A stretch of DNA of 64,000 nucleotides from Amphiscolops sp. MND2022 (lineage: Eukaryota): contig OZ076409.1 in assembly GCA_964187785.1 (NCBI GenBank), forward strand, positions 53,136,001 to 53,200,000, read 5' to 3'. This document shows positions 23,090 to 64,000 of the stretch, piece by piece; the first letter of the stretch is position 1; each line of letters begins with the position of its first letter. The notes beneath the pieces are model-generated. The model saw only the letters and a program-made list of their open reading frames with translations, was not told the origin of the DNA and made no database searches. A program made the position numbers and the translations under genes.

Positions 23090-23092
23090 ATT

Positions 23093-34606: not shown

Positions 34607-34639
34607 CTATAGAACAATATTTTAACTGATGTTTTAACC

Positions 34640-37296
34640 ATGAACCAAATCACCTTTACCCTATACTTAATATACATAATACAAGTTGTTAAATACACGT
34701 ATATAATACATATATTTCACTCTTTAGTTCACCCTTCAACTGTTCCTAAAGTTGACACAACCAATTCCGAAAATCATATTTCAGACCTAGACCCTAACAT
34801 TTTAAACTTGATGGTATCCCATTATGATTGTGCAAAACAAAACAATTTAAGACAATTCAGTTTATTAAATGTCGAACCATGTAAACAAGCACCCTCAGAT
34901 ATACAACACACAAAAACCCAAGCAACAGTTTATGTTAGAGCAAAGGCCAAAAGAATAAAAGCCTTTAAATGCGAAGCATATATAAAGACTGAAAAGGTCT
35001 GGTGTTCACAAACATTCACATCTAGTAGACGATATGATCGTTTACAATGGGGACAAAACACATTAGAACTTCCAAAAATATTGGACCCTATTGAATGCAA
35101 AAACTTGATAGAATATTTAAACGCGACTGATAGCGAAGAACTAAACAATTACAATATACAAAGCTCTTTCTCATTGTTCGACGATAGTAACTATCAAAAC
35201 ACAATTGAACGAATTCAAACACTATTTAGAGTAAAAAAAAATTAAATACATGGCATATTGGAACCTTCGTATTCGATGAAAATTATCCCGACTGGATAGT
35301 TAATGTTACACAAAATACATACTCTAGATGTCGATCAGACCGAGAACATTTAATTACCCGACAAAGTTGGAAACTTAGATTTGTTAACACCGCAATAGAT
35401 TATGACGATGAAAACATTCAATTAATACATGACGGACACATATTACCATGCTATCATTCAGACGGATTTTGTAAACCAACGACAAAAACTCCATATACAA
35501 TAACATGGTTTGATGAAAAATTTTGCCTCTTATTTCAACTTCAAGAATTCATTGGTAGAATGACACGAATCACAGACAGACATTGGATAGAAACCGATAC
35601 CTTCATTGAAACTTCAAACATCACACAAAAACTTCAAACCGAAGGAATACAAGGAACAAGATATCCTAATGTGAAAACACCACAATCAAAAATAAGCAAT
35701 CCAAGCCTTTCTCGATATGAAATATACCCAATTGCACAAACCTTCTGTGGAAAACCTGAACCATTATTCTCAACACAATATGATCACATCTTTGTTACAT
35801 ACTTAGATGGTTTTGATATGAACACAGGACTACCAAAACCACACTCAATAATTGACCAAACAATTAGTGGAAACATAAAATATGATGACTCAAATAAAAG
35901 GAATATTTCCCTGCATTGAATATATCAAACAATTTCACCACTTTAGATTATGATGCCCACATTAATACAAAAATTGATTTCACAACAAATCATGTATTTA
36001 AATCCATGACAGTACAAGAACTAAACACCTTTCATACAATATGTGAACTGGAAAGAACTCAATTGTTAACGATCTTAGCTATGTCAGTTAAAAATCCTCA
36101 ATTAGCCGGTTTTCTTTTAACTGGAAATCGAAGTAACTTTCTCTACGTTGAAGGATCTACAGCATGGCTGTATGATTGCCCTCATTTTATATCACCACTA
36201 TACAAGGCAGATAAATGCTTTGATAGAATTCCCATACACTACAGAGAAACGATAATGTATGTTGATCCTATAACAAGACAAACTTTTAACTATGCAACAC
36301 CAATTGAATGTGGAAATAACCCACAAAATATAATCGAATTAGACCCAGACTCTAACGACGGAGATTTTTATGTGTTAACACCAGAACCACTCAAATGAGA
36401 AGCACCACAAATGTTTAAACCTACCCAAATTAAAACAACAATCACTCCTAATACATTTACCGCCCAAGATGCCGGTATATACTCAAAAATGCAGAATTAG
36501 ATCAATTCTGGAATAGAGTATTAGTCGCTAAACATTCAGACACAACCCTTCAATTACTTGGAAAATCATTAGGCTATGATTTCATCACAGTGCATAATGA
36601 TAAACATTCCTACTCAGGACATAATCCTTATAATCATTTAAGGATTGGAGTACATGACCACTTGTTAAACCTCTTACCACTTTTCAACCCTGACTGGTTC
36701 AGTCAAGCATTCATTAATTTCTTTGGATATTCATGTTATGTTTTAACACAATGTGGAATTTATTTTTCAACATTTCTTTTCATAAGAGAAGTTTTAATAT
36801 TTTTACTCAGTCATAGTTAGTCATAGTTTAGTCATAGTTTAGTCATAGTTAGTCATAGTTAGTCATAGTTTTAACATTTTTACTCAAATTCTACAGAACA
36901 ATTAGCATAAAATACAATCTCCAAAGCAACATTTCCATTTTGAGTTCAATAGCCCATGGATTTTTTAATATAGTTACATCGGAAATGGTAACCGATTTAA
37001 ACAATACAGATAAACGAAAACGGATATATACTAAACACAAAATTACAACAAGTGAAAATGATAATATCGTATTGCCGGAAAAAGAATTAAACAATAAACG
37101 AAGATACTCTGATAATGTCTCCCCTTATTTACCTCCTAAATATTCCAGTAGGAGTTCAACATTTCAATCACCGCAAAAGACACACCCAACTAATGTCAAC
37201 GATATTAATTCTCAGGACTATGACCCAATATTATCAAATGTAATAGCTGTACCGGGAAGTCCTGCTAAAGTCTTTATTAAATTTAAGACCTCCTAG
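34640..37296 (+). pseudogene. env: Element A env: class III (chuvirus G / herpes gB-like) fusion glycoprotein, disrupted
   Basis: Hydrophobic N-terminus; HYDC..FSLLNVEPC; ICELERTQLLTILAMS..P..AG; LYDC..KCFDRIPI..YVDPITR..TPIEC; C-terminal TM-like segment. Lesions near 35240, 35900, 36396, 36485 and a 77-bp insertion at 36809-36885. Confidence 0.85.
36809..36885. repeat. (AGTCATAGTT)x6 insertion with a 19-bp flanking duplication inside env
   Basis: AGTTTTAAYATTTTTACTC occurs at 36790 and 36867; removing 77 bp restores the frame (..IFLL-KFYRTISIKY..). Confidence 0.85.
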
Positions 37297-37737
37297 CTAA
37301 AAAGCAATAACCAAATAAACAAATTAACCTCAGAAAAAGTTCAAAAAATTATCAACAAAATTCTTCTCAGTTTAACTTTCATTCAAACCCAAATTCTCAC
37401 TCGGACCAGTCTCTCCTTTTCAACTCAACTAAAAATTCACTTGCCTATCACAACTCAGCTCTCAACCAGAAGACTTCAAATGGATTTTCAATCCATCTAA
37501 AAGACCGAAATTACAGAAGTTTCTATTCCTGGAATAGATGCCACTGTGATTGTTGATGTTTTCAACCCACCATTCACTCAGTTATTCGCATATTGTAAGT
37601 ACAATTTAAACTTCTATTTTAACAAACAATTTAATGGATAGAAAAGACATAACGAAATTTTTCCTTATTATTAGAAACAGTATAATCAAACGTTATAATC
37701 ATTATTTTAGCTCTACAAAAACACGCAAGTTTAAATA

Positions 37738-39030
37738 ATGGAATCCTTGCCCGAAATTGATGTAGTTAATTCTAACCAATCTGAATTGCTTGCATCCCCT
37801 TTGAATATAACTATTCAACAAAATGTTAACGAAGATAATAGCTCCTCTTCAAACTTTCAAGATCCCATAGAAACTATTCCTATTGAACAAGTAGATCATG
37901 TTAACGCAAGATCTCAAAAAAGAAAGTACCCAGATATAACTGCAGACAAACCTTTTATGGAATCTGGCGCTTGCCCTCCTTCCATAAAACCAATTAAACA
38001 AGATGAAGATTGAGATTGTGAATTAGTTCCTATTCTCTCATCAAAACAATTTACCTTTCAATCTCAGTTAACCTCGTTATACATGATTCCAACAAAATAC
38101 AAATTCATCATCAGAGAATTTAAAAATGATTATCATACTTCAATCGCTTCAAAATTGATCACCCCATATGATTGGTGGTTAAACAATAAAGTGAAAATTT
38201 TCTCACTCCAATACAACTTCCTCAGACCATCTCCATATGATCTTCGAAGCGAAGAAAATGATGCAAATTTTTTGCCATACCAAATCAAAAAAGCTCAGCA
38301 CATGACTTATCAGAAGTTTCTTCAATATAAAGAGCCCGATAATTAAATATTCTTCAACTCCAAATATACATCGCCATTCACTTTCAACTCAGAATATCTA
38401 ATAGATGATACCAAAACAAAAGGAAAACTTAGAAATTATGACCCGCTTAAACAAAGTTTTCTTTTCCTTCCAAATGATAACCCAAAAAGACCAATCATTG
38501 TACCACAAGAATACCTCATTCTGAACGACGATTCGTTATTACAAGAAGATATACCTCAAAATATATCTGATCCTCTTCCTCCACTTCAACATATAGCCTC
38601 TCAACCTTTGGGAGACTGTGAAAATTCTTATTTTTACGCAATGACCAAAAAGGGATATTCAAATAATGAATTAATTTTCATTATTTCTCACCTGCTTTCA
38701 CTTCTTACAAATGGAAATCATAAAGAACACAAAAAGACAAAACAAGAATCGCCGAAGAAAACCAAAAATGACATTCCTCAACCACAAAGTTTTCGCCCAA
38801 CGGACGAATTACAGAAATATACAGAAATTCTGAACATCATAAAACCCTATCATCATCCAAACCGAGATATTCTTATAACAATCGCCGAAATCGTAAATAC
38901 TCTTGAACAAACTCGAAGCATAATACAAAATATCGTATTTGATACGACAAGAATTAGCCAATCAGCTTTGTGTATTCGCACATCTTTAGACGAATTCAAC
39001 TACACAATTGAAAAAATGCACCGATCTTAA
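37738..39030 (+). pseudogene. Element A accessory ORF4 (~430 codons, unknown function)
   Basis: Track ORFs at 37738, 38083 and 38608 share one frame broken by only two stops (38011, 38344). Confidence 0.75.
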
Positions 39031-39436
39031 CTGGTAATTATGGGATAATCACTTTAAATTGTTAACACTTAATACTTAATCTCTTAACAACCAGTCAAAA
39101 TTAATTGAGTCTACACGCATATGCCTGCTATGCATGATTATAGTACATGCTTGATATTGAAATACTCCTTTAAAATAAAATAATATAAAAAATTTCAATC
39201 ACGACATAAAAATTTTTAACAAAATTCCTCAATTGCTCCTCCTTTTAATGGACCGATTTCAACAAATAAGTACTTATATGAAAGATATTTAAATACCCTT
39301 CAAAAGACTTCCAAAAAACATTAACTTAATTCTTAAAATTTAAAAGTTATAACATCACAAATTACATCAAAAAAATGTCAACTACGAAATTCTATTTTCG
39401 AAGGAACTTTATTGTAAACAAACTAATCTTTTTTAG

Positions 39437-40030
39437 GTGAATATCGTCACAACTGCTTCTTCAGCATTCCTTCCTCCTCTCAAGCCGTCCATTCAAAAAG
39501 AATTCCAACGTATCTTCTACAACTTTCAACGAATTTCTTCATATTCTTCAATATGACGACTATTCATTCTGGTGACACAGACTGCCCGATAGCTCCTCTT
39601 CTTTCAATTCCTTCAGCTCGATTGCGATCCTTTCATTCTGAAAAAGTATTTAACAACATTAAATGCGCAGCTCAAAACAGATAAAAAGGCAGACCCTCAT
39701 CTTACAAGAATGATATTGCTCAATATGTTCCAAATATTCCAAATTACACGAAAAAACTTTGACCAATATCTTCACATTCATAAACATCCTGATACATATT
39801 CAGCTCAACGAGACGCCACTACCCAAACAGAGCATACTACTATCAAGCCCAAAAATTTAGTACGAAGTCTATCCAACAGAATGCGTTCTGAAATGGAAAA
39901 ACAACGTCTAAATTCCTATTGGCCTTCAGACAATAACGACGATACCGATGAAGAACTTCAAAAAGACCCTCCAGAAGCACTTCTAGATGATAATTACCCA
40001 TACAAAACGTATACTTACGTCTCTTTCTAA
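39437..40030 (+). pseudogene. Element A accessory ORF5 (~197 codons, unknown function)
   Basis: The frame of the 39710 ORF extends back, with two stops, to a CTAAT...TTTTTTAG acceptor-like site at 39423-39436. Confidence 0.55.
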
Positions 40031-41032
40031 TATCAACAGATGACATCAACACACTCATCCGATGACAACCCATCTTCAAATCCAACATCCACAACGATTG
40101 ATCGTCACAGCTCAGCACCCGTTCTTCACAACTTCATCGCCGCCCAACAGCTGACCCATCTTCATCCATCTTCCAATCTTCACTCTTCAGCCATTGAATT
40201 CTCAGCCAAAGATGATTGATAATCAATAATGAAGAAAACTCAAAGAAAAAACATTGTGCATGATAATATTTAAAAAAGCTTCAATTTCATACCGAAAACA
40301 TTCACAATGTATTTATTATTTCAAATTTCATCCCCACCCATGTTTATTTGCCCTTAAAATCCTTTAATTCACACCCGTACCGATATTTATTTGCTTTTTT
40401 TAAAAGAATAATTAATAGTTATTATTTTTCGGTGCTATCCTATCCAAAAATAACGTATGTTAACAACAAATCTTTTCAAATTTCAACAAAACAAGTTCAA
40501 AATAGAGCAAGCACATTGTTCAAATCATATTCGAATAATTACAGACCCAAATTCTCAAAGTTTTTAACATTTGTTACATAACAAACCCGCCAAAGTTGAT
40601 CACAACCTGATATCTTTTCAGACAGTTTTCACACTCGATGAAAAAATTTTATCAACAATAATTTTTCAATGAATCTTTGACCTTTAACTCGTATGATGTT
40701 TGCTCACGTTTGGCCAATGCGAAGTTCATTCAAAGACTTCAACAGAGGCAAAAAAATTGAGCATCTACCAGTTCAAAAAACAAGCCGACGAAAGCATAGT
40801 GAAAAAGAACACTTTGACGCTTTTTGAACTGTAGTCGCACCTACGAGGTGTCAATCAAAATTTTGACAATTCGAGGTACACCAATGAGTCGAACTTACAC
40901 CACTCTTAAAGAGACTTATGCCAATCATCCATCAAAAGAAAAACGTTAACTAGCTGAAACGCTAAGAACCTTTAAACAACATTTTTTTCTCCATTTTAAT
41001 TAATGATGCTACTTTAAAATTTTATTTTATTT

Positions 41033-41047
41033 AAAAACCGGGAAGGA
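41033..41047 (+). promoter_or_regulatory. Element A polypurine tract
   Basis: AAAAACCGGGAAGGA immediately precedes the 3' LTR. Confidence 0.75.
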
Positions 41048-41320
41048 TGTACTGACCTACATTAATAACCAATAGTATTTAGATGTTTATAGAATGAATG
41101 TTCTAGAATGTACACTTATTTATTATTGAATGACTGTAAATCTCTACTCCCTCAGAGAGAGAAAACTCATAATCAGTATTCGGTTGACTTCCTTTTTGTT
41201 CTACTTCTAACACCTCGAACTAGTTGTAATAAAGTTAGCTAGCTAGCCTGTCTCTTAGCCGCTTTTAGTAGTTGTGAATATTACTACCGAAAGAAATAAC
41301 CAACCCTTAAAAGCAGCACA
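41048..41320 (+). repeat. Element A 3' LTR (273 bp)
   Basis: TGTACTGACC...GCAGCACA followed by ATAT. Confidence 0.95.
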
Positions 41321-41605
41321 ATATTCGCGAAAATCAGTGCGTTTGATCAGTTTTGACCAAGTGTTGACATGAACCAAAGCAGTCACTCATTAACCTCGAT
41401 ACAGTGCGGACGTTGTGTTAGCGATAATATTTCCTTTGGGACCATAGAATCAACTTTACGTAGTAGCCTCGTAGATAGAGCGCTTTGATCAATTTGTAAA
41501 TAAGTGTGTCGTTACAACGTCGCTGATAGAAATGCAGCGCATTGCTTACTATGTTAGGTTCAATTTATGCATAGGGGAGGCGCTTTCAACTAATTCTTCA
41601 TATAG

Positions 41606-42180
41606 TGTCGCAAGCATTGTGGTTTGGTTGATCATCATTTTGACGATTTTGAATATGCTCACTTCTTGAGTTATCTCTAGTAGATGCATTTCGCAGAACT
41701 TCGGCCGAAACGTTCCATCCTTTTCTGGTCACCTGTCCTGAACCGGCCATGATGGCATTTTGAATCTGAGGTAATACTTGATTACTAATGGTATCATTTA
41801 TGGCTCTCTGTATTTGAACACTGACACTGTTCATCATCTCATCCATTTCCCTAGATACTCTAGAATTCAATTCGTTAGACAATTCATTGATCTCGGCGTT
41901 AGAATTAGTGCCGACTGAGTTCTGGCCGTGTTCGGCAATAATCCCTGAACTAATATCTCTACAGCCCTGGAACAGATTTTCATTAACATTTCCGAAATTG
42001 TTGCTGGTAATGCTCCCAGGCCTTCCTGCCAAGTTGCTATCTACGCTCTCTTCTTTATTCTTTATTATCCGAACCATTAAAATGGTTTTCTCTTAACATA
42101 CCGTCAAGGTTTTCAAAAACCGAGAGTATTTTAAGTCTTCTAGACTTTCCAGCCTTCTTCTGTTTTCTTGTGGTAGGCAT
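41606..42180 (-). pseudogene. gag N-terminal segment encoded within the element B LTR
   Basis: MPTTRKQKKAGKSR from 42180; a 7-bp tandem duplication (42053-42066) shifts the frame, and removing it gives ..GSDNKEESVDSNL..NACD up to the LTR end. Confidence 0.7.
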
Positions 42181-43227
42181 TTGAAGAAAATCCGAATTCA
42201 AATATTTTAATTAGGTTGTATTCGGAAAACAGTGATTTTGAAAATAAACAGTAAAGCTTTTACAGTCAAACTGAACAGTGGTAGAATAAGGCAAATTGTG
42301 TCTTCTGAAGGAAAACAACTACTATATAAACTCCCTTGGGCATGACATATATGACAAAATACTTCAAAAATGCAAAAAAAAACATTTCAAAAGCTCCAAA
42401 CGGGGTCATGGGACAAATATCAAGACCATTCAAATTCTTCTCTTTGATGCAACAACAAATATTTTAGAGCGGCAGAGTACATCAAACAAATGTCATACAA
42501 CAAATTTCTTAAGAATGTAAACTGCTATGTATTGGCACGTGCCTACTTATGTGGGCGAATTCGTCAAACAGGCATCATCGATTCATGTAATCCTGCACAA
42601 TGAAATATGGCCCAAAATGGCCATTTGACAGAAGTGTTAATTATTAAGGGTGGCCAGAGTAGTCCAAAGGACTGGTATCTACATCATTCTCCTGATTGAT
42701 ATTAATTGCACTGTTTAGTCTCAAGAGACTCATGAGTATCACCGAAAATAAATATAATCTTACGTGACAATTAAATCACACAAAATATCATCAACATGAC
42801 AATTTAAACAATGAATTAGAGAAATTGCCTATTTCGGCCATTTGCCTATTGTCCCATTCAAGTAACGCATCAATGTGTCAAACGGCCTTATCCGGCCAAT
42901 TAATCAAAACGAGTATAGTATTGAGAAATGAACGATTGTGATTGGTTGAAATAATGAGCTCAAGTGACGTCTCCGGAATAGGAGTTACGTTCACATGAAC
43001 TCGTTTCCGTTACAGCGTATACTTACTTGCATTCTAGCTTCAATTACATTGAACATATTACTGCACTGCTATACTTCAAAACATTCAGTTTGGATCTTTC
43101 GATTATGAGCCTTAACACACTAACCATCATAAAATAAAATGAAAATAAGTAGCAACACCTAGTATAAAATCGTGCAAAAATGAGAAAATTGGTATAAAAG
43201 GTTCAAGTTTCCGTTAAAAGTTCAAGT

Positions 43228-44016
43228 TTAATAAATTGGGAGAGTACCTGTCGCTGTCTCTTGTCCGACCGAGGTCGTTGTAATTTTCGTGCCGTCACCT
43301 GCGGCAGCCTGCGACACAGCGAGTGCCAGAAAAAGCGAACTACCTGCATTAAGACCGTTTGAATACGCTTCCCGACTGAGGGCTGTGATGTAAGCAGGTT
43401 CGCTCCGGGGTGTAGACCTCTCCATGTACCAGTCTGTTTTTTCTTGCTTTATCTCGTCGACATATTTGACACATACCATGCAGCTGAGGCACCTCTGGTT
43501 GCTAAGGTCCGCAAATGGCCGCACACTCTGTATATGGTAGGAAGCATGAAAGGTATTGTCCGTCGATTGCGGCATTGGGGTGTCCAGTGAAGGCCCCCTT
43601 TCATTTTCGAAGGGTGACATGGGTGACTCCAAAACTGGTAGAATTGTGTTACAGAGCTCGATTTTTGCCTCTTCAATTTTCCGGGAAGGCGCATAGCAGA
43701 GTTTTTCGTCGAAATATTTAAAACCTAACTTGGGGGTAGTTGGCGGAACCGGTCGCGAGCTACTGGGACCTGCTTCCATCTCGTCATCCAGCCCCTCTGT
43801 GGTCATGACGCGTCCAGCAATGAGAATTGGGCTAGAATTGAAATCTTTCTCGATTCTGCTGATCAATGCTTCGGTGTCCGTTGACCAGTCCGAATCGTAG
43901 GAGTCTGTAGCCTCTTCTTCCTCGTCGCTTGAGATGTATATGACAGACTCTGCTGAGTCTTCTGAGCTCTGCTCCTCGAAGTCAAAGAGTTTCCTCAATA
44001 GGTTAAATTTCTGCAT
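43228..44016 (-). CDS. Intact 262-aa element-borne protein with an acidic N-terminus and SIM-like motif
   Basis: Uninterrupted ATG-initiated ORF; VIYISSDEEEE; CLSCMVC; decayed homolog at ~21130-21395 (+). Confidence 0.7.
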   Translation of the reverse strand: MQKFNLLRKLFDFEEQSSEDSAESVIYISSDEEEEATDSYDSDWSTDTEALISRIEKDFNSSPILIAGRVMTTEGLDDEMEAGPSSSRPVPPTTPKLGFKYFDEKLCYAPSRKIEEAKIELCNTILPVLESPMSPFENERGPSLDTPMPQSTDNTFHASYHIQSVRPFADLSNQRCLSCMVCVKYVDEIKQEKTDWYMERSTPRSEPAYITALSREAYSNGLNAGSSLFLALAVSQAAAGDGTKITTTSVGQETATGTLPIY

Positions 44017-45072
44017 TATCAGTTTGTTTGCAATTTTGCATTGTCAGATGGCAGCCGATTTTGGTGAAAATTTGGAGTAGACAGAATTTATCCAATTTTC
44101 TGAAACAAGCCGAATCGGGCGTTTTCCCGGCAATTCGTATTTGGCGGTTAGGTTTGTCGGTAAATTATCCTAACTTGGCATAAACATTTCTGAATGGAAT
44201 TTTTCAGCGGTAATAAGTCTTTGAATTCTTGAAGACAAACCCCCTTTCTCATTTTCTCAAGTGGATAATAGAAGAGTCTTTGAGTTGTTAAATATCTCCA
44301 TTTCAAGTGGGTAATTAGCAGCGTGCTTGGGTGTAAATAACGACACGCGTTATGAGGTTTCTTTCAAAATGACTTCAGCCAATCAGAGATGAGCTTCGAT
44401 AAACTGAAAAATGAATATTAAAATTGCGAAGATTACAATCCTAAATAATTCAAAATGGCGGAATTCTAACTAAAATAACAACGGAACAAAACGGCAAAAT
44501 AAAACAGGGTAAACGGCCGTAAGCGTCGTTCAACTAACAAGGTTGTAAATATTGAAGAATATCCTGTACAACTCGCTGGCGGACTCCATGTACAGCTTTA
44601 AATATGTAAATAGTCAAGTAATATTTGTCTGGTAAAATTTTCAGCCAGGAAAGCCAACTTTCAATCTTCTTGATTGTGACTCCATTTCAATTCCATTTAC
44701 GATTTGCATTTGTTATATTTGTATTCTTCTCGCATTTGTATTTTTGACTACAACACCCATTCCCGTCCATCCTCAACTCCGTTGCTGATCTTCCTTCCCT
44801 CGGATTCTTTTGGATCTTCTCACCATCTTCAGCCAAACCAGGCCAGGTTCCCCAACTATTTAAATCGATTGAGGACTGTTCCCCAGAAGACAACGTTACT
44901 GCACAAAAATGTCTTCTAATTCAGGTTGGTCTGAACTTTTGTAAATTGAACTAAATTAACTTGATCAGAGCTAATTTTGTTCACAAGGCGCTTCCTGTTT
45001 CCATCATCTAACACGTGATAGCATGCTTCATTCAAATTTCAAATACTTCTGGAAGATTTCTAATACGGCTTA

Positions 45073-48000
45073 ATGGACTCTTTCCAAGGAAGCTCACCGC
45101 GAAAATTCATCTCCTTCTGTTTAGAAAATCCAACAGATGAAAGTTACCAGCCACCAGACCCAGCCTTCATTCAAGTTCCTAACAAAACTAGCAGTGTGGA
45201 CCCAGAGTTGCAAAAACAACCTAGCCAGCAAATTTCTTCAAAGGAGTACGGTAGTGATGAAGATGTTAATGCGTATGCCGACAACATCGTACGCTTGAAA
45301 GAGGGATCAACTATTTCAGGAACAGGGCGGAGAGTTGACTCGGAAGAGCAACCCAGGCGAGTCACTGCACCTGTGACTGATGGATTAGATGAAGTAAGCC
45401 GGATCCGGACAAGTACCCCAGTTCCCATTAGCCAGGTGAGAGAGTAACTGCCACAGCGGAAACCAGTTTCCCAGAATTGGTCCCCATTTCAATGCTTCTT
45501 GTTGGGGAACGTTCTGAAACCCACCTCTCTGCCAGTGAGGATAACACATCTTCCATTTATGAAGTTCCAGCGTTGCCTGGACTACCAGCCCAGACAGAAC
45601 CCCCGACAGAAATGAGCTGAGAAGACTGAGGACGAAATCAGTAGATTGGGTTATCAACATACCCAAAATGTCACCTTTGGTGACACAAAGTCAGGGACAG
45701 AAGGAGGAGACGAATCTGGCCCCAGCACCAGGACTATCCGCCAAGCAGAACCAGGACCTTCCGGTCAGACAGTAAACATGCCTGTTCATGAGTTATCAGG
45801 GAGGAGTAGGGCAGTGCTCAAACAACTATTTGTTGAAACTCCTCCTTTCTCGCTGCCAGTTGGGCACTCGACTGTTGCGTTTAGCGAACCGGAGCTTCAT
45901 CACTTACTCAAGACTCTTACTAATGAGACGCTTAGTCAATCATTCACCACTATGGTTTTGGAAGCAGTGAAGGGCGCCCCTGCGACAGCACAATCGCGGA
46001 CCGATCACTTCCGATCCCGGCATCGGGCACAAAATCCGCACCCACACATGGACAGTGATACCAGTGAGGGAGGGATAGAGAGTGACTCGTGTTCTGAACC
46101 CCTTGCTCCAGGATCTTCTAGTACTTTAGCTAGTGGGGACTCGACAACAAGTTACGAAGAATCAGATAGTGCTGCAGAAACGGCTTTAATAGACGAATCA
46201 TGTCAAAGGTCCACTGCAGGAACTGCTGGGAAGCCCCCCATAGTTACAAGCACTCAAGCCAACCCGCTGAAACAGTAACCTCCAGTGAGATGAGCTGTCC
46301 CGAAGAGACACTGTCAGCAACCCGGGAAGCAGCAATTGAAGAGAAGACCAACGTTGTTCCCCAGTCCAAGAAGACTAAGAAAAAACCGAAGACCATACAA
46401 CGAGGAGTCCCGATGAGAGAGGAATTTTTCTCTGAAATCGGATGGACGCGTTCCTTCATTTCTGTTCCTGCTGACCCGCTGCACAATCCTTGCATGGTGT
46501 GGTGCCACATTTGTAAAAAGAATATTTCCATCAAAACTAAAGGCACTTTCGAAATTTTACGGCACCACAGAACAGAGAAGCATCTTAGGCGCGATCAAGG
46601 GTGGAGGTACGAGCACTTGCACAGCATTGACCCCATCAGTGGAAAAGTTCAGCATAGGGAAAGAGGCCGGAATGGAAAAGTGCTGTCATTGATTGAACTG
46701 GTCAAAGAACTGCCAAAGTTTATCCACGCTGAGCTAGTGCACAAAGGGGAGCGTTTTCCCTCCTACGAAGATTTCCCTACAAAAAGTTGTGCCGAGTCTT
46801 CGCGTGCCGCAGTAGTCTCCCGTCCTCTCAATTTACTGGAGAACTTGGATCTCTGTCTCGGTTCCTCTTCGTGGTTTCCACCATAGCTGACATCGTGGCG
46901 TGTTCCCGGTGTTCAGTGGACTTTGTGCGCACCCTAGAAGTGCAGCTATTTCCCCAGAGGGTTTCAAAGTTGTTCCCGCTTTGAACATTTATCGCTGTTC
47001 TCCCTGATGCACAAAGGAAGTTACAGCGTATTCGGAATGATTGACTTCTTTTCGGTGCTGCAAGCCCTTCTAGTCTCCCTGGGTGGGTCTCAAGTAGAGG
47101 ACTGGATCCTAGAATATCCGGAACTCCATCGAGTTAGTGCTGAACTCATTGTAATTCATGGGTCCAAAACAATAAAGTGGCTACTTTAATCATGATATTC
47201 CTTCTTTAGGCGATTACCTCATGCCAGTTGGACCTGAGGGCTTGCCAGCATTGTCCACTGAACTGATCAACCTGTGGAAGAATGTGCGAACTTACTTGAC
47301 CGTCCACTCGCCCGGGGAAGAAGGTCAAGGAGTAAGAAGTAGAGTAAGTTTTTTGTCCGTGTTGTCCTTCTGTTTTTTTGACTCAAAAGTGTTTTTAACC
47401 TGCATAACCCAGTAGTCTTCCGATGAATATGGACAGGATTTTCCTTATTTAACTCGTGCTGTTACAGGTGCAGAGCTTTGAGTGGTCACTTATTAGTGAT
47501 GAGTTTATTACCGTCAAGATTGAGTTCTTTCAACGTCTTGTCAGTGACTGTTAGTATTTTCTTGTAGATTCTGGTTCACTTTTGCCTGTTTCGGACGTTT
47601 TCCTTTGTGTTTGCAGATTTATCCAGTTTCGTAATTAACCTTCAACAACGGCGCGATGCGTCTTTCTATCTGTTTGGTGAAGTTAGCCAGTCTGTCTATT
47701 GTCTTTGTTGCCCTGCTTCACTCCAGACACTGTGCCTTTGGAGAACTCTTGGTTCCTCCTCGTGGAGTTCAAGACAGCAGAGGGTAAGTTCAAGGAAGTA
47801 AACGATTTTCTAATTCGGCCAAAGCTTGTTTCAAAAGTTGCTGCGGCCAGCAAAATCAAAGCCGAGGGACTTTTAGTTGGCAAAAAACCTGACAAGGCAA
47901 CGGTCCAGAAGACCATCACTGAGGTAAGAAACGACTTTGTCCAAGAGGCACTCCGTTTTATCAAGTACCTGCTAGATGGGGTCCTACATCAATCAGAATC

Positions 48001-48786
48001 GAACTCTCACCTGGTCCAGGTTTTGGCAGCTTTCAATTCTCACATCTTATTCAGACGACCAGTTAACGTTGCCTTGCGACATTTTGAGTTACTGTACAAT
48101 ACTTTTCTTTTGCGGAAATGGGTCACGAGCGCTGATGAGTCTTCCTATCGCGAAGAGTACCTTGGCCTACTTGATCATCTGCAGATTACTTATCCGGCTG
48201 ACTTCAATTCCACTGATCTGTCTGCTGACCTAATCGAGTTCCTCATGGGGGTTGACTTTCTTGGCACTAAGCCACGACTTCTCCACCTCTTTAAATTGTG
48301 TTGCCTATGATTTACAGCCCGTAGTGAAGAATTTCGCTCTGTTACTTTTGGTTATATTGACCTTATAGGTCCCCAGGGAAGATTTGCCAACTCCCCCCCC
48401 CCGACGTCGTGTTGCCGGGACGAAGTTATTTGTCTGGAATTCTCGATTCAATCCTGTTCTGCAGTCAGGATTCAAATCTGTCAAAGTTCTCTCTGCTCGC
48501 ATCTAATTTTGGGAGGTCAGCATTTGCCCCTACATATGATCCTTGGGATTATGTGGATACGTTTGGACGTTCCAAAATCTATAAAGCTTTATTGTCATCC
48601 TATATGGTAGCGGTTGCAGGCCCTCATAGAAACGTCGTTAGTTTGGACCCTAGGGAAATTTCTCCAGTCCTGGAACAGTCTGCCTTGCAAATTCCGAGTA
48701 GCACAAAGAGAAGGCGAATGGGCAGTACAAAGTCTCGGTCATCCAGTTCATCTGTCGTCAGTGTTCCTACCGCCCTTAACTTCTAA
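45073..48786 (+). pseudogene. Antisense BED-finger / hAT-transposase-derived gene inside element B (probably spliced, disrupted)
   Basis: Disordered S/T/E-rich N-terminus; GWT..VWCHICKKNISIKTKGTFEILRHHRTEKH (C-x2-C-x16-H-x5-H); helical C-terminal region RNDFVQEALRFIKYLL..LVQVLAAFN..PRLLHLFKLCCL; splice-like sites (TTCTTTAG 47209, GTAAGT 47344, TTTGCAG 47617). Confidence 0.7.
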
Positions 48787-49074
48787 GGACTAACGTGTAC
48801 ATATGTATTTATGTACACTAGACAGTATACTCTGTTTTATTCTGTGTTGTATTTATCCATAGTTGCCAATTTTGTTGCTATTTGTATTAATTGATGGTGA
48901 TTTGTTTCTGTTTCGTTGCTATACCCCTGCATATATTCTGTCCGTAGGGGTTTTTCGACCGTTCTTTTATTTGTTCAATGAAAATACTGTCTGCCATGGG
49001 ACTAGAAATGGAAAAAAAGATAGAAGAAAAGAAAGGCAAAATAACGCTCGTTTCTGGGCGAAATTCATTTCTGT

Positions 49075-52000
49075 CCAGTATCTAAAGTCTTCTGAGTAGT
49101 TTGGAGTAGGATTAGGCCTGAGATTATCTTTCCCTCCTCTGGGGTTCAGACTTTCATTTCTATCATCATTTTGCGAGATTTCTGGCACGATAATATCAAC
49201 CCCCCTGTTTGGAGAGTTTTATGCATCGTTTTCATCATTAGAATATCTTTCCTGAAAATTTGCATCATTTTCCTGTCTTTTGGACAGATCCCGGGAACGA
49301 TTTTTTTTAATTTTTGTGGTGAACGGCTGAATCCGGCCAATCAGAGTTTTCATTTCTAGCAGCTTCACTACCTTCATTTCTATTGCTGACGTCACTTTTC
49401 AATCTTAAGTTCTGATTTTGCGCTGCGTCGTTGACGTCATTCGGACTGTCAGTCGTGATTATGTAATCCGCTTCTTTCTCGTGTGCGTCACTTGCATTCA
49501 TTTCTGCCGTAACCGGCTGTTCGCCATTCGGCAAGCTTTCTGAATAGGCTCGTTGCCTCGTGTAGTTAGCTGGTCACCGAAGTTTGTCTCCCACGCTATT
49601 GTATATAAGTCGTCCTGCGGAATGATAATTTCCTCGTCTCGCTGTAAGTGCTCTTCTCGAGAATCGTTTTCAAACAGTTGATTGGGAACGAACTTTTTAA
49701 GGCGGATTCGATGTAAAAACTGAGTTTTATTTGTATTGAGCCTGCGGACGGTGTAATTTTCCTGAGGTAAAACTTTTTGGACTTAAAATGGTCCAACCCA
49801 ACGATCATCTCTGAATGGAATCTTTGATCCTTGGTGATTCGCTTTTGGCTGCAAAACAAAACAGTAATCATTTTCCTTGAGTCGTGACGCTTTTGCTTTG
49901 CGGTCAGAATATTCCTTGTATTTAACGTAGGATTGCATGATATTCCTTTTTGTTTCGTCAATCAAGAGTTTTGTGCGATTCTGAATTTCTTCCGCAAATT
50001 CAGTTGTGGCGATGATCTGCTCGTTTGGATTATTTTCAAGTTTGTGATCCAAGATATCGTATGGAACTCGTCCATGGAATACTCTTGTTGGTTCACAACC
50101 GATACTTGCATGGTAACTGGTGTTGTGATTGAGAAATGCTAATGGCAAGTATTTATGCTATCGTCGGCGATATTCCCCTTATGCCATTTTTAGGTTCGTC
50201 TTCAATGAAGCATGCGTTCGCTCTATTTTCCCGATTGTTTGCGGGTGTTTAGTTGTTGCACATTTGAGTGTAAATCCGGAAATTTGCGTACTTTCTGCAA
50301 TAATCGTGGAAATGAATGCAGTTCTTTTGTCGGTAAAAAGTGTTGTTGGTAATTACGCATGTTTTGTCAGTTTATCAAGAAGCACTTTTGCTACATTGAT
50401 TGCTGAAGCGTCCGTAAGAGGATAAGCAAACAGATATCGAAAAAAGACATCAATTGCAGTTAGAACATTTTCATATACTCCACTTGGGGGAAGATTCGGC
50501 AATTAGTCGATTTGCATAGCGTCTTCGGGTCCAAGGTCCCATTCTGTCAAGTTAAGTAGTTCAGGTGTGAAAGTTGCTTTAGGGACTCGTTTGTTTCTTG
50601 CGCATTGCTCACACCCTTCTACCCACTCCACTTTTTTATTATTCTTTGCCATGCTAGGGTGATAATACCTTTGTCTGATCTCCTGTAACATTTTTGATAT
50701 GCCAGGGTGCTTTTGTGGTGTCCCATGAAGCGACTGGAGCAATTCTTGGAGCAAGTGCTGCGGGAGTAGAATTTGATGGCATTTTACATTCCCTGTTTTG
50801 TCGAAGTATTGCCTGGTCAGGATCTTTTCCTTGACTACAATCCGTTCTAAATTATTTGCATAGTGTCTGCATCGAGCGTTCTGTTGCAGTACATTTCTGA
50901 ATGTTCTTCATGAAAGAGTTTTGCTTTCAATTGCTGTAATACTGCATCTTTGGATTGCTCAATAATTATCTGATTCGTTTTCCGTAGTCGGACTTGGATA
51001 TCAGGTTGTTGTTCGATCAAATTTGTTAACAATGTTTGTATTGTCACAGCAGGTTCTTCCATAGCGGGATTTTTCCTGATTGCTTCTTTCAACGCCCAGT
51101 ATTGTTCTTCCGTCTCATCCTGCTGATTGGACATTGATTTCAATTGGTAAGGTTTGTACAACCTCGCGGATTTTCATGACTAATTTGTCCTTGGGATCAG
51201 ATTCCAATCGGGATAGGTAAATCGCTGCTGTATTTTGTGCTCCAGGGATATGCGCTATGACAAAATTGAATTGAATGACATAGTCAGAAGCGTTCCACAG
51301 GGCTTGGGGTACAATTTTTGTTTAGAAACATTGGGTGACGGCATTGTTGTCTGTTAGGAGAATGACCGGGTTCGGCGCACCCCAGAAAACATGCCCAAAT
51401 TCTTTAAATGCAAAATAAATTGCAAGAAAGTCTTTTGGATAAAAGGACATCTTCATCTGGGTGGTGGTGGAGGTTTTGGAACCCTAGGCGACCAGTGCAT
51501 AGGATTTGCGGAATGAAGTGAATTTCTGACTTGGGTCATCTTCGATTAGCACTGCATATCCAGCAGCACCAAAACTTGCGTCTGTCATCAATGCGATTTG
51601 TTTATTCGGAATCGTTGTTTTAGGGTCAAGTCGCAACAATTGTCTAGTGCTCGGTTGATTTCCTCAAACTGCCGAACCAATTCGTTTGATACTAGAACTT
51701 TTTTGTCACTTTTCAGCATCTTATAGAATGGGGAAAGGCGTTGTTGGAAAGGAAAGACAATCTTGGGACGTAGTTTCTGTAGTAATTTGAAAATCCCAAA
51801 TAACGTTGCAAAGCCTTTTTTGATTTCGGAAATTTGGTTTTTTCAAGAAAGTTTTGAACATTCTATCTTTGGGGTTTGACGCCTTGTGGGATAATCGTTC
51901 GTCCAAGAAAATCAATCTCTAGCACCAAAATGGCATTTGTGCATTGTCAATTAAAGGCCTGCTTCCTGAATGCATTTGAATGTTGCTCTCAGGTTAGCGA

Positions 52001-53527
52001 TGAGACGATCAGCGTCGTTGGATGCGATGCCGATATCGTCCACAAACTGGGCACACTGATCTGCTTTAATTACTTTATCAAGGTATTCTCGCAGAAAGCT
52101 CGAGAATGCGGATAGCGCCCGGCTAAGGCTTTGTACCAATCGTCTGTAGGCAAATGTGCGGCTCCCAAAATTGAAGGCTAACATTTCACTTGATCGCTGG
52201 TCCGCCATCTGGAGGCAATGGTACGACTGTGAACAGTGTAATTTGCAAAAGAGTTTTTGCCCACCATGTATTGGGCGGCATCAACTAGGGTACTGACGGG
52301 GTGATTATTGTTTATACGATCGTCCGAAATTAGATTGTTGATTTTTCTCAAGTCAACCAGGAGTCGCAGTTTCCCATTTGGCTTGTTTTGCGCAAATATC
52401 GGGCTGGCGTTTTTGGAAAAAGGCAATGATTATTTCATATTTATGTAGCATTGCTAGTTCAACTAGGATGTCTTCCTTTAAGTTTATTGGCGCTGGGAGG
52501 CTCTGGCTATAGGCTGGGGAATCGTCCTTGGGCGTCAGTTTTACCTTAATTTCCTCGTTCATGTCTACGTCAAATCGGTGTCTCGCAAAAATGTCGTGAA
52601 ATTCCACTAGTAATTCTTCGATTTTCTGTTTTTCATCAAGAGTAAGGGTGGAATCCTTCCAATTGAAGTTTTCTACGAATTTTGTTCTGGATTCCTCATC
52701 TTTTGTAGGATCAAGGGTCTCCAGGTCCTGTAAGGCCTGCAATTCTCGTATGATTCTTTTTTGTATCGGCGTATGTTCGTCTGGGTTTCCTGGGTTTTCC
52801 GGGGATGGAAACCAATAATTTTCCGAGTTTTGGGGCTTTTGTTGGTCTTGATGAGGCTACTGAGATAATGGGCTGCCTGCACTTGGTCGTTTTGTAAGAG
52901 GTGCCAGGTCGATACCGGATCAACCGGTTTGACGTATTTCATTTGTTCTGGCGTCATAACAGTGAAGCTAGCAATATGGAGTCCTTTTTTGAGTTTATAG
53001 GGATGATCCGTGAACTTATTCACAGGTATCGATATATTGCCATCGTTCAGAGTGACCAAGGCTGGGCAAAAGGTAATGTCACCTTCTTCGTGTAGAAGGT
53101 CAGTTGGTTGAAGTATGCCAGTGACCGCATTTTTGAGATAAAGTAGGGAGCTTGTCCTAATTAGGACTCTGTCGTTCGGTGGAATGGTTATTTCAGTAGG
53201 ATTGAGTATTGGCTTCAAGACATTGGAGTATTGGTGATCAGCTCTTTTGAGCAGCGTTGAAAAGAACGGATAGTTCAAGATCCCCCTGTTTCATGTCCAG
53301 AACTGTATGGTTTTCCTGAAGGAATATTAACCCTATGATTGGTCCCGTCAAATGCTCCATTACTATGAATATTTCGTGAAACTCGATGTCACCAACCGCA
53401 AATTTAAGCTCGATTGTACTTTTAGGAGTCTCTAATTGTCCATTTGCAAAAATGATTTGAAAATTCGGAGGCGGACCTTCCCGGGTAACATATTGTGGAG
53501 AAAGAATTCGAATTTTCTGGAGGTCGA
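49075..53527 (-). pseudogene. pol: Element B pol (heavily disrupted)
   Basis: LRLLVDLRKIN, RRLVQSL, QFVDDIGIA (RT); TDASF (RNase H); HG..KHPG..CEQC (IN zinc domain); WVGPF; C-terminal NLRPNPTPNYSEDFRY. Confidence 0.92.
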
Positions 53528-55865
53528 TGTCACGACCCGCTCCCGGTCGTAATTTTACTTGCTGCTTTGGAATACCGGGATTCGGCAGAGGACATGGACA
53601 AGGACAGAGTAAATATTGTTAAACTAATCAAATCAAAATTCTACTTACAGTACAGTTAAATAAACGCGAATAATTTTCCAAATACGGAATTCGACGTAAA
53701 TGATACGGAAGATTTTCAGAAATGAATTTAAACTAGCTAAAATTGCCGGTCTAATGTTTTCACACGCAACACCGTTTTATTTCCGGTTTTATCTTCTGAG
53801 TTTTCCATTCCAATCTAAACACTAAATAATTTTGCAAACGGGATCATTTTGGCGTTCCACACTAAAATGAAAACATAGAAACGACATTTAACTCCGAGAT
53901 CCCAACGGAGTCCATAAAATCTAAAATGTCATAACATACAAAATAGAGTGGAAATGTATTCCAATATTAAAGTAGTTGTTAAATATCCACTTAAAACCGC
54001 AGTCAAGCGATTTTAAGTAAATGTATACAATGTTATGACAGCGTCACTCAACTAGGCTAGTGACGGGCGTTTCTATTTTTACGGACCATTAGCGTCGCTT
54101 GCTGGCAGAATTATCCGAGCCGGTACCAGTAGAATTAAGCTTGGTTGCCCCTAGCAACGCTTACTAGCTAAGAAAGAGAATGAAATCGCGTACGCTCTCC
54201 GTTTTCACTCCGCTTGCTACTGCTGCTAAGCTATAAGCAACCTTAATACGTACGGAGCACTTACGGAGCGGATTGTAAAATTGTAGTCCGCTGTCCAGCT
54301 ATAGATAATCTTAATACGTAGCGTCTACGGAGCGAATTGTAAAACCGCAAATGAGAAATACTGCTCCATACGAAATCCGAACCAAGCCTTTTAAATTAAT
54401 GCATTTGGAAGATCTAAGAGTTATGATTCTTATATAAGGGAAACTGTACTGCAAGGAAGGATGATAAGAATTGTAATGGTATTTCTGTGTTCTGAGTTTG
54501 TATCATCATGATAAGTCACTAAATCGCGTTGACACTATGCTTTGCTTAGTGCTTCCTTAATGGAACAAATCTACTTGATTTACTATGGCACTTAAAATAT
54601 CTTAATATTAATCCTAATGTAAAACGTAAGGTCAACGCGAATTCCTTGTTTTCAAGTCAGTAATAACAGTTGTATTTTATGATTACAACAATCAGGCTAA
54701 TGACCGAACTTTGATTATGTTTTGATGAATTTCATGGTGATTGTGTGAAATGTTGAAGTTGCTTTACAATTATTATTATTACGAATATGTTGCGCTCATC
54801 TTTGTTGTATTCCGTTAAAGTCCCGTTTGGACTTAATTTGTGTTCAGTATAAATAATGTAGTATGCCATTAGCAGGTAATTCATGTGTTTGAATTTGGGA
54901 TTATCGTTTCAGCATCGTTTGTTCCTTTATACCAAATTTCCATATTTTCCTTCAGCTTCTAAGTTGACTCATTCCGTCTCGATTTCGTCGCCATTTTTGA
55001 GCGTCATTCTTTTGCTTCGAACTTCAATCTTCCCAACTTGATTGCTGACTAATTGATCACGCCGGCGTGCCTACGCTAATGAAAATGTCAGCTAGACTTC
55101 TATTTTGCCGCAATTTGAAGCACAAACACGAAATGAACCGCCTGAACAAAAATGACTTGAACAAAATTTTACGGAACGCTGACGCAACTAGGAATTTTGA
55201 TGCCTGATTTTGTGACGCGGGACTGAAATAATATGAATCATTAGCGCTTTTTGTTGAACAAACTCGATTTTTGTGATACCTAGGAATTTTTAGGTGAGGA
55301 ACAAATGATGCTGGGAAGGTATAAATATGTAATACATACATGTAAATCAGTTAGTTTTAACCTGCTATGTAACAATCAGTTCTGTTCCGTCATCATAACG
55401 TTTTCAAAAGAAAACCTGAATCTTTGAGGAATTCAACTTTTCCAAAGATATTCTCTATCTCTCTTTCTCTCTATCAAAATGACAGCTAGAAGCCAGAACA
55501 GGAAAGCTGTAGCAGAATTGGTCTCTGGTGATTTCGAAACCTCTGTAACCGAAAACTTACCGCCTGAAACCCTTGTAGCTAGTTCTAGTAAGATTCCTAG
55601 GATAGAACCAGAAAGTTTGACTGAAATAAAAACGTCATTAAGAAAGGAGATTATGTCTGACTTGACCAAAATACTCGCGGAAAATCAAAAGGAAATGCTT
55701 AAACTGATAGCGCCCTGAAACAAAAAACAAAAAACAAACATGTCCTCATCAATGCTCAAGACTCTGACTCTGAAACAGAGAACGTTTCCGTAGCAAGGAC
55801 GTCCACCCCAGTTAAAACACAAACTGCGACTAGTTCTAAAACAACTCCGGTAAATAGTCGTAACA
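53528..55865 (+). repeat. Element C 5' LTR (~2.34 kb)
   Basis: Inverted termini TGTCACGAC ... GTCGTAACA, followed directly by TGG; TATA-like boxes at ~54431, ~54849 and ~55320. Confidence 0.8.
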
Positions 55866-56963: not shown

Positions 56964-59900
56964 CAGGTATGAAGAAGATTTTTTAACCGAATGTAATGAG
57001 GAACCAACTCAAGACTGGCAACGCCGTTGGAACGTAGGCATGATTCTCAGACATAACGCCAGACACCCAGACGGTCCAACACCACTACCCCAGTGGATAA
57101 CGGAGTCACCCGATAACTATGCGACACTCAAAAGACCGTTGCCGGAATCAAAAACAGACAGAATTTATATATACGACAGAGACTACAGATGTGACCCTTG
57201 GGATGAACCAACCATCTACGATACAAATAAACTATCCTTCAAAATCCAAGTATCCAACCCTCAAGCCCAATCCACGGGGATCACAAACCTACCATCACCG
57301 CCGTCACCGATCTTGAAAAGCACAACACCATCCCCAACAGTACCCGTCACCATCACGTCCACACCAATAGACGCAGAAAACATAATCTGCATTGAAGATA
57401 AAACAATATGGGCACATCAAGAAAGACGAAAACGAGAAAACGTTGATCCTCCAGTAACCCCTCCAAAAACTGCGCCAGTCACAGCACTGATGGACGACGA
57501 CGTAGAAATCTCGGAATGTCCCTCAAAACTGCCTGAAGACCTAGATGCCATCAAAGAATTCATCCAACACGACAAAGATGACGACTACATTCCGTTAATG
57601 TCCTCCATCGCCCTCAAGAAGAAAAAACGAATGCTTTTTCTACCAGTCGAATTCAACACAATCAAAATTGAGGCGCTAGTCGACTCAGGTGCGTACATTA
57701 ACGCTATTAGTGAAAGGGACGCTGAAAAACTCCGACAGCACGCTAGTCAGTGCATTGTCAATAAGGCACCCCCACCCCCTTTCAAAGTGCAGTATGCCAA
57801 TGCTGAAATAGAACAACCACTTGCCACGTACACCCTACGTTTCAAAATAGGGGATTACACCTTTGAAGAAACATTCATCATCATGAATCAAACGTCATTC
57901 CGCATAATTGGATTAGCGTTCCTACGTAAACACGCCGCAATTCTTGACACGGCACAAGGAACCATCGACTTCCCTAAAATACAAATCACGATGGCGCTCA
58001 CAGATGAAAGACAAAAGTGCAATCCCAAACCCATCACGATGAAGACCGAAGCCAAGTATACAATTCCAGCGCACTCTACCCGAATAATCTATGCAACAAT
58101 CCCTGCGAGTATCGAACACTCAATAACGGGCACTATACAACCCCTACCACAATTCGATGAATGCGCGAAGGTAATAGTAGCCCCAGCTATTACAACAGCC
58201 AGAGACAAAAAATACCAATTAAAATTGCCAACACCACGGATTTCCCATACACAATAGCCACCAACACCAAAATGGCCGAACTGCAAATCCTGAAACCCGA
58301 AGAAACGAAGATGATCCGCCCAGTTGACATAGCCGCCCTGAATCTCCTAACTGACCATGATGACGTGGTCACGTACATCAATGCACTGATGCAAGTAGAG
58401 CGGCCCGACGATAATGAAAAGAAATTCTGGTTCCGACCCCAGAACACCCAGGCAACGAACAGGAACATTCGCCCATACAAAAGCGAATCTTGAAAGAACT
58501 GCGAGACCTCGCCGAGTTAGAAAAACTTGACCCAACCGAGAACGAAGTGTCTCGAAAACAAATTTCTATCCATGTTCAAATGGACAGATTCACTGATTGC
58601 GAACAAAGACCGTGAAAACCTCGAGAACACCATTGTCGAATTCAACGACATCTTCGCTCGACACCGGCTAGACATCGGGATGAACACACAATTCAAAGTC
58701 AGCCTAACACCACAAGACGACAAACCAGTCTACACACAAAGCCTACCAGTCCCCATCAACCTCAAAGAAGATCTAACTGTGGAACTGGCTCTCATGCACC
58801 GATACGGTATCATTACGACACTCCCCTTCTCCAAGTACGCCAGCCCTATTTTTGCACAACGGAAACCCAACAGCAAGCTGAGACTGCTGGTGGATCTGCG
58901 CAAAAACAACGCACTCATAGCAGATGACTACATCAACAACAACCACCCTGTCAGCACCCTCTCAGATGCGGCACAACACCTAGCAGGGAAAAAACTGTTC
59001 TGCAAGCTTGAATGCTCCCAGGCGTACCACTGCCTTCAAATGGCAGATCAAAGGTCAGTAGAGTTACTTGCTTTTAATTTTGCTAGTAGGACGTTCGCCT
59101 ATCGTCGCCTGGCACAAGGACTAAGCAGAGCTCTATCAGCTTTTTCGAGCTTTATGCGTGAGTATCTGGACTCAGTCATCAAAGCAGACCAATGTGCATA
59201 ATATGTAGATGACATCGGCATTGCCGCAAACACAACGGAACAACTCATAAAGAACATCAGAGCAGTCTTCAAATGCATTAGAAAAGCAGGACTAAAACTA
59301 ACCATCGAAAAATGTCATTTTGGAGTAACCCAAATCGAATTCCTTGGCCGAACCATCACCGCAGACGGAGTGGCCCCGCAAGATCAAAAAGTCAAAAATT
59401 TCCTCTCCAAAGTCCGCTTCCCCAAATCCAAAAAACAAGTTCAAAAAAACATTGGCTTTGTTAACTACTACCGCAACTACATACCGCGCTTGTCAGAAAA
59501 ACTCATCGGCATGTACGAACTTCTCAAAGCAGACTCCAAGATCAGAATTTCAGAAGAACTTGTCGATAACTTTAAGGAAATTAACGCCAGTTTAGCGGAA
59601 GCTTGTGGACTTGCACTCCGACAGCCCATAGCAGGAAAACAGTACGTTTTAATGACGGATGCAAGCTTTCGTGCATCAGGCTACGCCCTCATGATTGAGG
59701 AGAACGACGAACGCAAAATACTCTCCAAACGGAAAAATTGCGCACCAGTAGCGTTCGGATCACGAGTTTTTTCACCTGCGCAACTGAAAATGTCCATCTA
59801 CTGCAAGGAATTCTTAGCAATCTACCATGCCTTCCTCGAATACAGCCACATACTATGGGAAACAACAATTCCAATACTGGTCTTAACGGACAACCGCTCA

Positions 59901-63437: not shown

Positions 63438-64000
63438 TTACTTGATATGATGATATACGAGAGGATCAGTATCTTTCTTCGACTTCTTCTTCGGAGTCGT
63501 CTTACTGCCACCAGCTTGAACATTAGATTTTTTCGTTTTCCCGACTTGCTTCACATCAGTGCTCTTTCCACCAACTTTACTTCCACCACTTTTCCCTTTT
63601 CCACTAGTAGAACTGGAACTACTCTGCACAACGGAACTGCTACGAGACCCCTGCTCTGCACGAGACAAACGATTGACCCGATTACACTCAGTATAATGCT
63701 CATCACTGGACTGCCGTCGCTTTGCCAAAAATTCCTTATACAGCTCGCAAAAAGCTGCAATAAATGAGTCCACGCCAGAATCACACAGATCTTTCCACAC
63801 ATAAAAATCAGAGCCAATATAGAAGAGCCCAGCATCGGAAACAGCATATCGAATTAAGCCCATCGTCGATTCAGTAAACAATGACTGCGGAGAATAACCG
63901 TCACTCAAAACATAGGATTGGACAACCCTACAGCACAAAAGCACACTCCCTTCAGCCTGCTTACAGCCAGCCAGATCAAGAGTAAATGGAGGACTAACAC
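63438..64000 (-). CDS. C-terminal part of an antisense ORF in element C (begins beyond the window)
   Basis: At least 168 open codons converging on the pol stop; VQSYVLS..FYVWKDL..S/K-rich tail; positional and weak sequence equivalent of 48409-48786. Confidence 0.6.
   Translation of the reverse strand, partial: VSPPFTLDLAGCKQAEGSVLLCCRVVQSYVLSDGYSPQSLFTESTMGLIRYAVSDAGLFYIGSDFYVWKDLCDSGVDSFIAAFCELYKEFLAKRRQSSDEHYTECNRVNRLSRAEQGSRSSSVVQSSSSSTSGKGKSGGSKVGGKSTDVKQVGKTKKSNVQAGGSKTTPKKKSKKDTDPLVYHHIK

Follow-up and report, generated by a model that had tools for sequence, protein, structure and literature searches.

An antisense, intron-bearing gene of probable hAT ancestry is a conserved part of three Gypsy retrotransposon clades

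A decayed Ty3/Gypsy retrotransposon, element B, carries an antisense, intron-bearing gene (here AS) that lies opposite pol and spans 45073 to ~48795 on the plus strand of the analyzed window, a 64,000-nucleotide stretch (contig OZ076409.1, positions 53136001-53200000) of a 1.07-Gb assembly. AS is a fixed, vertically inherited part of three divergent Gypsy clades, B, C and D (element C of the window included), and is under purifying selection. As a whole, it is best explained as a captured, catalytically dead hAT transposase that acts in trans as a nuclear DNA-binding accessory factor, a reading to which we give an even chance and under which one type of mobile element would have made a helper protein out of another.

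Element B lies on the minus strand and reads, in its own sense, 5' LTR, gag, pol, AS (antisense), ~1 kb of intergenic DNA, a second accessory gene in sense orientation (ORF-S) and 3' LTR. Its decayed pol (RT, RNase H and integrase; 49078..53527, -) is arranged tail-to-tail with AS and is broken at 53528 by element C, which is nested in B and whose 5' LTR (53528..55865, +) is 97% identical to its 3' LTR and has a 5-bp TSD. The 3' LTR of element B (41606..43316, -) shares 88% identity with its 5' LTR, which lies outside the window (L082:741-2499). The carriers have the anatomy of Ty3/Gypsy elements: LTRs of 1.7-2.3 kb with TG...CA ends, 5-bp TSDs, a PBS immediately after the 5' LTR, and gag followed by protease, RT, RNase H and integrase, an order recovered by Pfam on the frames of element C and repeated in B copies. 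Elements with both LTRs measure ~16 kb, and the LTRs are 99-100% identical in five of six elements examined, which indicates that the carrier lineage moved recently. A PBS 12-mer common to B and C occurs 7,993 times genome-wide, against 65 occurrences of the reversed control. Several PBS sites are separated from a pol end by only ~2.3-2.4 kb, a spacing that points to a non-autonomous subfamily with internal deletions.

At both ends the LTRs run into coding sequence: they start within the 3' end of ORF-S and include the 5' part of gag (window 41606-43316; also L050/L083/L084 and L045/L085/L086). The initial annotation placed AS between pol and the PPT, but AS does not abut a PPT: the intergenic DNA and ORF-S separate AS from the 3' LTR, and clade B lacks a canonical PPT. 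Pyrimidine-rich coding sequence, with no purine tract, precedes the 3' LTR in all three clade B copies read, a puzzle for plus-strand priming in this clade; element C has a short purine run before its 3' LTR.

AS family profiles match the window frames with E-values down to 4e-63, and the N-terminus from 45073, the finger at ~46500-46585 and the helical last exon lie where the initial annotation had placed them, on the strand opposite pol. Exon 1 (45073..46778, +) encodes a conserved N-terminal MD(S/F)FQGS motif, a Ser/Pro/acidic disordered region with a conserved ~70-aa island, a basic patch, the finger and the start of the helical region. The BED-like zinc finger, W-C-x2-C-x16-H-x5-H (46500..46585, +), has four ligands that are invariant in 19/19 aligned copies from three clades, and it is not a chance pattern, since all 40 scored genomic matches to its DNA have E <= 3e-65. 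The remainder of exon 2 (46779..47132, +) encodes a degenerate RNase H-like core. It is followed, all on the plus strand, by intron 2 (47133..47209), exon 3 (47210..47343; helical, with a conserved Trp), intron 3 (47344..47467), exon 4 (47468..47549), intron 4 (47550..47616; phase 1) and exon 5 (47617..48795), which encodes a helical insertion-like domain, a hAT-like C-terminal helix without the catalytic Glu, more helices and a basic tail. The GT-AG borders of these three introns account for the splice-like sites reported at the outset. Of the earlier description of a helical region ending PRLLHLFKLCCL, the helical last exon was recovered and the protein end was not, as ~150 more codons follow PRLLHLFKLCCL in open copies.

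The window copy of AS is a pseudogene. It lacks ~400 bp at 46776/46782 that 19 of 20 fetched copies have, a deletion that takes the end of exon 1, intron 1 and the start of exon 2 with the first two strands of the core; exons 1, 2 and 3 are frameshifted, and exon 5 contains frameshifts as well as an early stop at 48308.

Elsewhere, one open AS copy reads 1,308 aa without a stop, and the gene encodes ~1,300 aa and contains 3-4 or more introns, of 67-174 nt where measured. The splice sites are conserved: intron 1 has GT in 34/34 cases and AG in 31/33, one miss looking like a 3-nt coordinate offset; intron 2 has GT in 23/23; and the intron 4 acceptor is AG in 20/21. Relatives that lack one intron join the flanking exons as predicted, confirming the junctions. 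Intron 1 is absent in two database proteins (P0113 and P0114), intron 2 in clade C, intron 3 (precisely) in one clade B subgroup and intron 4 (precisely) in L135, and clade C seems to have extra 5' introns in AS. As introns 3 and 4 are both present in other clades, their absences look like precise losses. Such losses would need spliced antisense mRNA to be copied back and may thus be an indirect sign of AS expression. With AS in antisense orientation, genomic RNA would not be spliced at the AS introns, so that these would persist through reverse transcription.

Selection on the coding sequence was estimated by pairwise Nei-Gojobori dN/dS on unsaturated pairs, the other pairs being saturated at silent sites. 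The finger exon is the most constrained part of AS (0.02-0.05, three pairs), next to exon 2 (0.06-0.10, seven pairs), the last exon (0.04-0.11, five pairs) and the N-terminus (0.16-0.18, two pairs); the corresponding values are 0.02-0.03 for pol (ten pairs) and 0.09-0.11 for ORF-S (two pairs), which is likewise under purifying selection. The range of 0.02-0.11 across copies in the folded exons supports the proposal, made when the sequence was first read, that AS is kept as an accessory factor.

AS is found throughout the element family. Among 50 loci selected by AS, pol lies tail-to-tail with it in 49 (19/20 chosen by finger DNA, 10/10 by exon 2 and 20/20 by more distant queries); the single exception, L038, has no adjacent pol within the stretch fetched. 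No free-standing AS copy was recognized among these loci, which sample the top-scoring matches. Because these samples had been chosen by AS, a further 20 loci were selected by pol: clade-B pol ends gave 881 exact matches, of which the first 100 listed were sampled at intervals of five. The last exon of AS stands beside pol in 18 of them, and the remaining two, in which AS is mostly lost, keep only its 5' end and the intergenic region. First-look searches with AS pieces returned 6,671, 6,943 and 7,794 candidates, which are not copy numbers. Element C, for which an ORF at the same place had been proposed, indeed has a homologous AS gene at the equivalent position, with its 3' end in the window (63441..64000, -) and the rest beyond it (L081:1441-5051). 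Derivatives without most of AS also exist (L157, L174).

Identity between clades is 67-85% for pol and 24-32% for the AS last exon. In trees of pol and of the AS last exon, built from 21 copies with long open pol frames and midpoint-rooted for drawing only, clades B, C and D each form one side of a branch. Within clade B the two trees disagree: L048 and L098 are 99% identical in pol and 56% in AS, and L045 and L048 differ by a dS of 0.15-0.21 in AS and 0.84 in pol, with ORF-S saturated. We infer that AS was captured once, long ago, and then descended vertically, diverging faster than pol, with modules exchanged by recombination. Across clade B loci (L045, L048, L098 and others), pol, AS and ORF-S have different closest relatives, that is, modules are exchanged between subfamilies.

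The relationship of AS to hAT transposases emerges at the level of fold. Pfam and sequence-profile searches found no BED or hAT similarity in AS, an outcome that the initial annotation had set down as refuting its reading; the Pfam zf-BED model scored below cut-off on the finger (E 0.12). An AlphaFold model of AS searched with Foldseek returned Hermes transposase in all of rows 1-8 (best E 8.4e-4, prob 0.99), and the top match in a viral structure library is also a hAT transposase (E 1.4e-3). Structural alignment (VIA) places model residues 5-296 on Hermes 23-265, from the BED finger to the RNase H core, and model residues 182-298 on Hermes 143-268 at 3.6 A over 111 residues. The modeled core follows the RNase H-like order of helix, three strands, helix, strand and helix at pLDDT ~70-80, and the N-terminal finger, with its invariant C-x2-C-x16-H-x5-H, coincides with the start of the Hermes alignment at residue 23. 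The region after the finger, where hAT transposases have their intertwined dimerization domain, is modeled less surely (residues 133-188, pLDDT <50), and only the helix before the first strand aligns to Hermes there. In the last exon of AS, language-model features match hAT-dimerization clusters at 0.93-0.94. The predicted domain order (BED-like finger, RNase H-like core, helical insertion, C-terminal helix) is that of hAT transposases at fold level only. The BED/hAT derivation first suggested from the letters thus stands on AlphaFold/Foldseek matches to Hermes, language-model features and domain order, and finds no counterpart in sequence profiles. Overall, these models make hAT ancestry quite probable. 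Long-frame hAT transposases with canonical motifs, both Ac-like and Tip100-like, also occur in the genome (L138-L143, L147-L149).

Hermes needs D180, D248 and E572 (PMC2533014, in part), and a look for such DDE residues in AS had been proposed at the outset. The complete triad was not recovered. With the register set by eye on the motifs of local hATs (L138, L149) and uncertain by one residue, the first catalytic column holds Glu in 12/17 copies and Asp in none, the second Gly in 17/17, and the third (Glu) column no acid in 21, with a near-invariant Pro following; by this register, two of the three acids are gone. Conserved acids are also lacking in the columns next to the second and third sites, and there is no conserved C-x2-H after the fourth strand or conserved RW in alignment A2 or exon 3. 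To judge from these alignments, AS is very probably catalytically dead. It would be hAT-derived but not a working hAT transposase, and DNA binding is probably retained.

The second accessory gene, ORF-S (43228..44043, -), encodes ~260 aa, has no family assigned and runs into the LTR at its 3' end; its counterpart in element C lies at L081:5877-6740. Close to its N-terminus, ORF-S has a V-I-x-I-S-S motif with acids at 13 loci of clades B and C, the two clades covered by the stretches fetched. We take this motif to resemble the SUMO-interaction motif consensus, which hints at a chromatin role for the AS/ORF-S pair. The intergenic region between the head-to-head AS and ORF-S genes (44044..45072) is conserved as DNA and has no conserved frame, making it a candidate two-way internal promoter for both.

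From these features a working model can be proposed. A Gypsy ancestor would have acquired an intron-containing hAT-type transposase gene, in antisense, between pol and the 3' LTR. Transcription of AS would start at an internal promoter that it shares with the head-to-head ORF-S, its mRNA would be spliced in the usual way, and its introns would pass through reverse transcription in the genomic RNA, which is of opposite sense. The ~1,300-aa protein would be nuclear, its finger binding the element's own DNA and its long disordered N-terminus recruiting or blocking host chromatin factors, so that it would activate its family, or protect it from silencing, in trans. AS carries basic NLS-like patches and a disordered N-terminus of ~500 aa with conserved islands. 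The intact finger, probably dead active site, basic patches and disordered arm of AS, together with its rapid divergence, its swapping and the existence of AS-less derivatives, would suit a nuclear regulator that acts on the family in trans; we give a role as activator or anti-silencing factor about an even chance. More tentatively, AS could be a sequence-specific counter-silencing protein, co-expressed with the SUMO-motif protein from the two-way promoter and passed from one pol lineage to another as element and host compete in an arms race.

Other functions are compatible with the same origin. As an integration cofactor, AS would bind cDNA ends or the chromosomal target and tether or import the pre-integration complex. 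Element ends and target DNA are natural ligands of a transposase scaffold, the Hermes BED domain binding subterminal repeats (PMC10368747, in part); AS has NLS-like patches, and plant antisense ORFs have been proposed to take part in nuclear import (PMC7264820). However, the divergence of AS far outpaces that of pol, and pol lineages that are nearly identical carry swapped AS genes, a poor fit to a tight integrase partner, and the four TSDs read, a very small sample, share no motif, so that we consider this role unlikely. AS might instead be a repressor or decoy that limits the copy number of its own family or acts as a dominant negative against host hAT transposases or BED-finger repressors, since dead transposase derivatives can act as repressors and the genome contains intact hAT transposases of several types. 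This seems improbable: AS has no detectable sequence similarity to the sampled local hATs, making mixed oligomers unlikely, and the carrier clades are very abundant and recently active.

The remaining alternatives concern the donor and the status of the gene itself. A domesticated host ZBED-like gene or another insertion-domain DDE transposase (Mutator-like or P-like) could have been the source in place of a hAT transposon itself, whichever function is preferred. We consider this unlikely: in the Foldseek ranking Mos1 stands at 24 and P element at 42, below the block of Hermes rows, and Hermes alone aligns through the finger as well; a single AS-selected locus in 50 lacks adjacent pol within the stretch fetched, and no free-standing copy was recognized among the top-scoring matches sampled. 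The initial annotation had also allowed for an ordinary nested DNA transposon, absent from other copies and bounded by its own TIRs. AS is instead a family-wide part of the element, flanked by conserved element sequence, and has no TIRs of its own, as had been noted earlier: no TIR-like inverted repeat >13 nt was found in the window or in two intact copies (best E 0.16). It is therefore not a nested DNA transposon. The broken window copy and the two of 20 pol-selected copies that lost most of AS would suit a nested hAT insertion, a neutral passenger or a sequence relevant only as antisense RNA, yet the same position in three deep clades, congruent trees, absence of TIRs and conserved splice sites make any of these exceedingly improbable. 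A neutral passenger is ruled out for the AS protein by dN/dS of ~0.1 or less. Antisense RNA may have a role in addition to the protein.

On the preferred reading of a captured hAT transposase, AS can be set beside several known systems. With hAT transposases such as Hermes it appears, from the model, to share domain order and the fold of the finger, RNase H-like core, helical insertion and C-terminal helix. Unlike them, it lacks the conserved catalytic acids, CxxH, RW, TIRs and sequence-level similarity, has a ~500-aa disordered N-terminus and a C-terminal extension, and moves by reverse transcription within an LTR element. Domesticated hAT genes such as ZBED1/DREF, ZBED6 and DAYSLEEPER are transposases turned into non-cutting DNA-binding proteins. 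In contrast to these, AS is owned by a retrotransposon rather than a host and is multicopy, fast-evolving and exchanged between lineages. VANC of the VANDAL (Mutator-like) elements is, like AS, a captured, fast-evolving accessory gene and a model for a possible AS role (PMC13547354, in part), but it has a different fold and origin (MAIN-like) and a class II carrier in plants, and anti-silencing, a feature of VANC, is suggested for AS by analogy. A 9-mer count on three LTRs found nothing above three copies, and no tandem target motifs were seen. LTR elements of bdelloid rotifers have captured ORF3 genes (DEDDy exonuclease, GDSL esterase), animal non-env extra genes found only by remote homology; unlike AS, these are enzymes in the env position, and neither a transposase nor an intron is mentioned in the portion of the source consulted (PMC5408684).

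The closest parallels in arrangement are the antisense ORFs of plant Tat/Retand elements (maize Grande gene23, rice RIRE2, Silene Retand; TRP28/PF04195) and of fungal Boty, which are likewise extra antisense genes between pol and the 3' LTR, kept in most copies (PMC7264820; PMC11963269, in part). Such ORFs are known in plant Gypsy elements and one fungal element; they are described as lacking similarity to other TEs, a nested-TE origin was considered and set aside for want of such similarity, and their origin and function are a stated open question (PMC7264820). Maize gene23 is nuclear and has its own upstream promoter (PMC7264820). AS differs in being intron-bearing, in its length of ~1,300 aa, in its recognizable BED/RNase H/hAT architecture and in its pairing with a second, sense gene; introns are not mentioned for the Tat/Retand ORFs in the part of PMC11963269 consulted, and TRP28/PF04195 gave no match in AS in Pfam and profile searches. 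In our literature search, no LTR retrotransposon was described as carrying an antisense gene that is spliced and derived from hAT, though prior annotation in repeat libraries (Repbase, Dfam) is possible.

AS is thus an antisense accessory gene whose class II origin is probable and can be traced, whose introns are conserved, and which is under strong selection and present in many recent copies. Three questions become testable: what job such genes do, whether one transposon can domesticate another in the way that hosts do, and how introns are retained or lost across reverse transcription, the precise single-intron absences being a natural record of a gene that passes through reverse transcription each cycle. 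Were the counter-silencing reading true, LTR retrotransposons would have their own equivalent of VANC, derived here from a DDE enzyme, and AS would help to account for the thousands of copies that the lineage reached.

Several further observations concern rearrangements and neighboring elements. The pol of element C contains two near-identical (99.8%) internal duplications (57070-57674 / 60129-60733 and 59624-60133 / 60732-61241) that double the RNase H region, either a recent rearrangement or an assembly artefact, and a clade C copy (L118:5962-8200) has a tandem duplication of the exon 1 end and exon 2 region of AS. Element A (22819-41322, +) is an 18.5-kb LTR element with ~270-bp LTRs and a strong C-rich strand skew, in which AS family profiles found no match; it has an env-like, Cys-rich frame with a hydrophobic end at ~34600-36800, as judged by eye, and further frames downstream. 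Finally, the window contains a 94-bp tandem pair and several short dispersed or inverted, MITE-like repeats (10776-10969; 12262-16771; 19114-20170).
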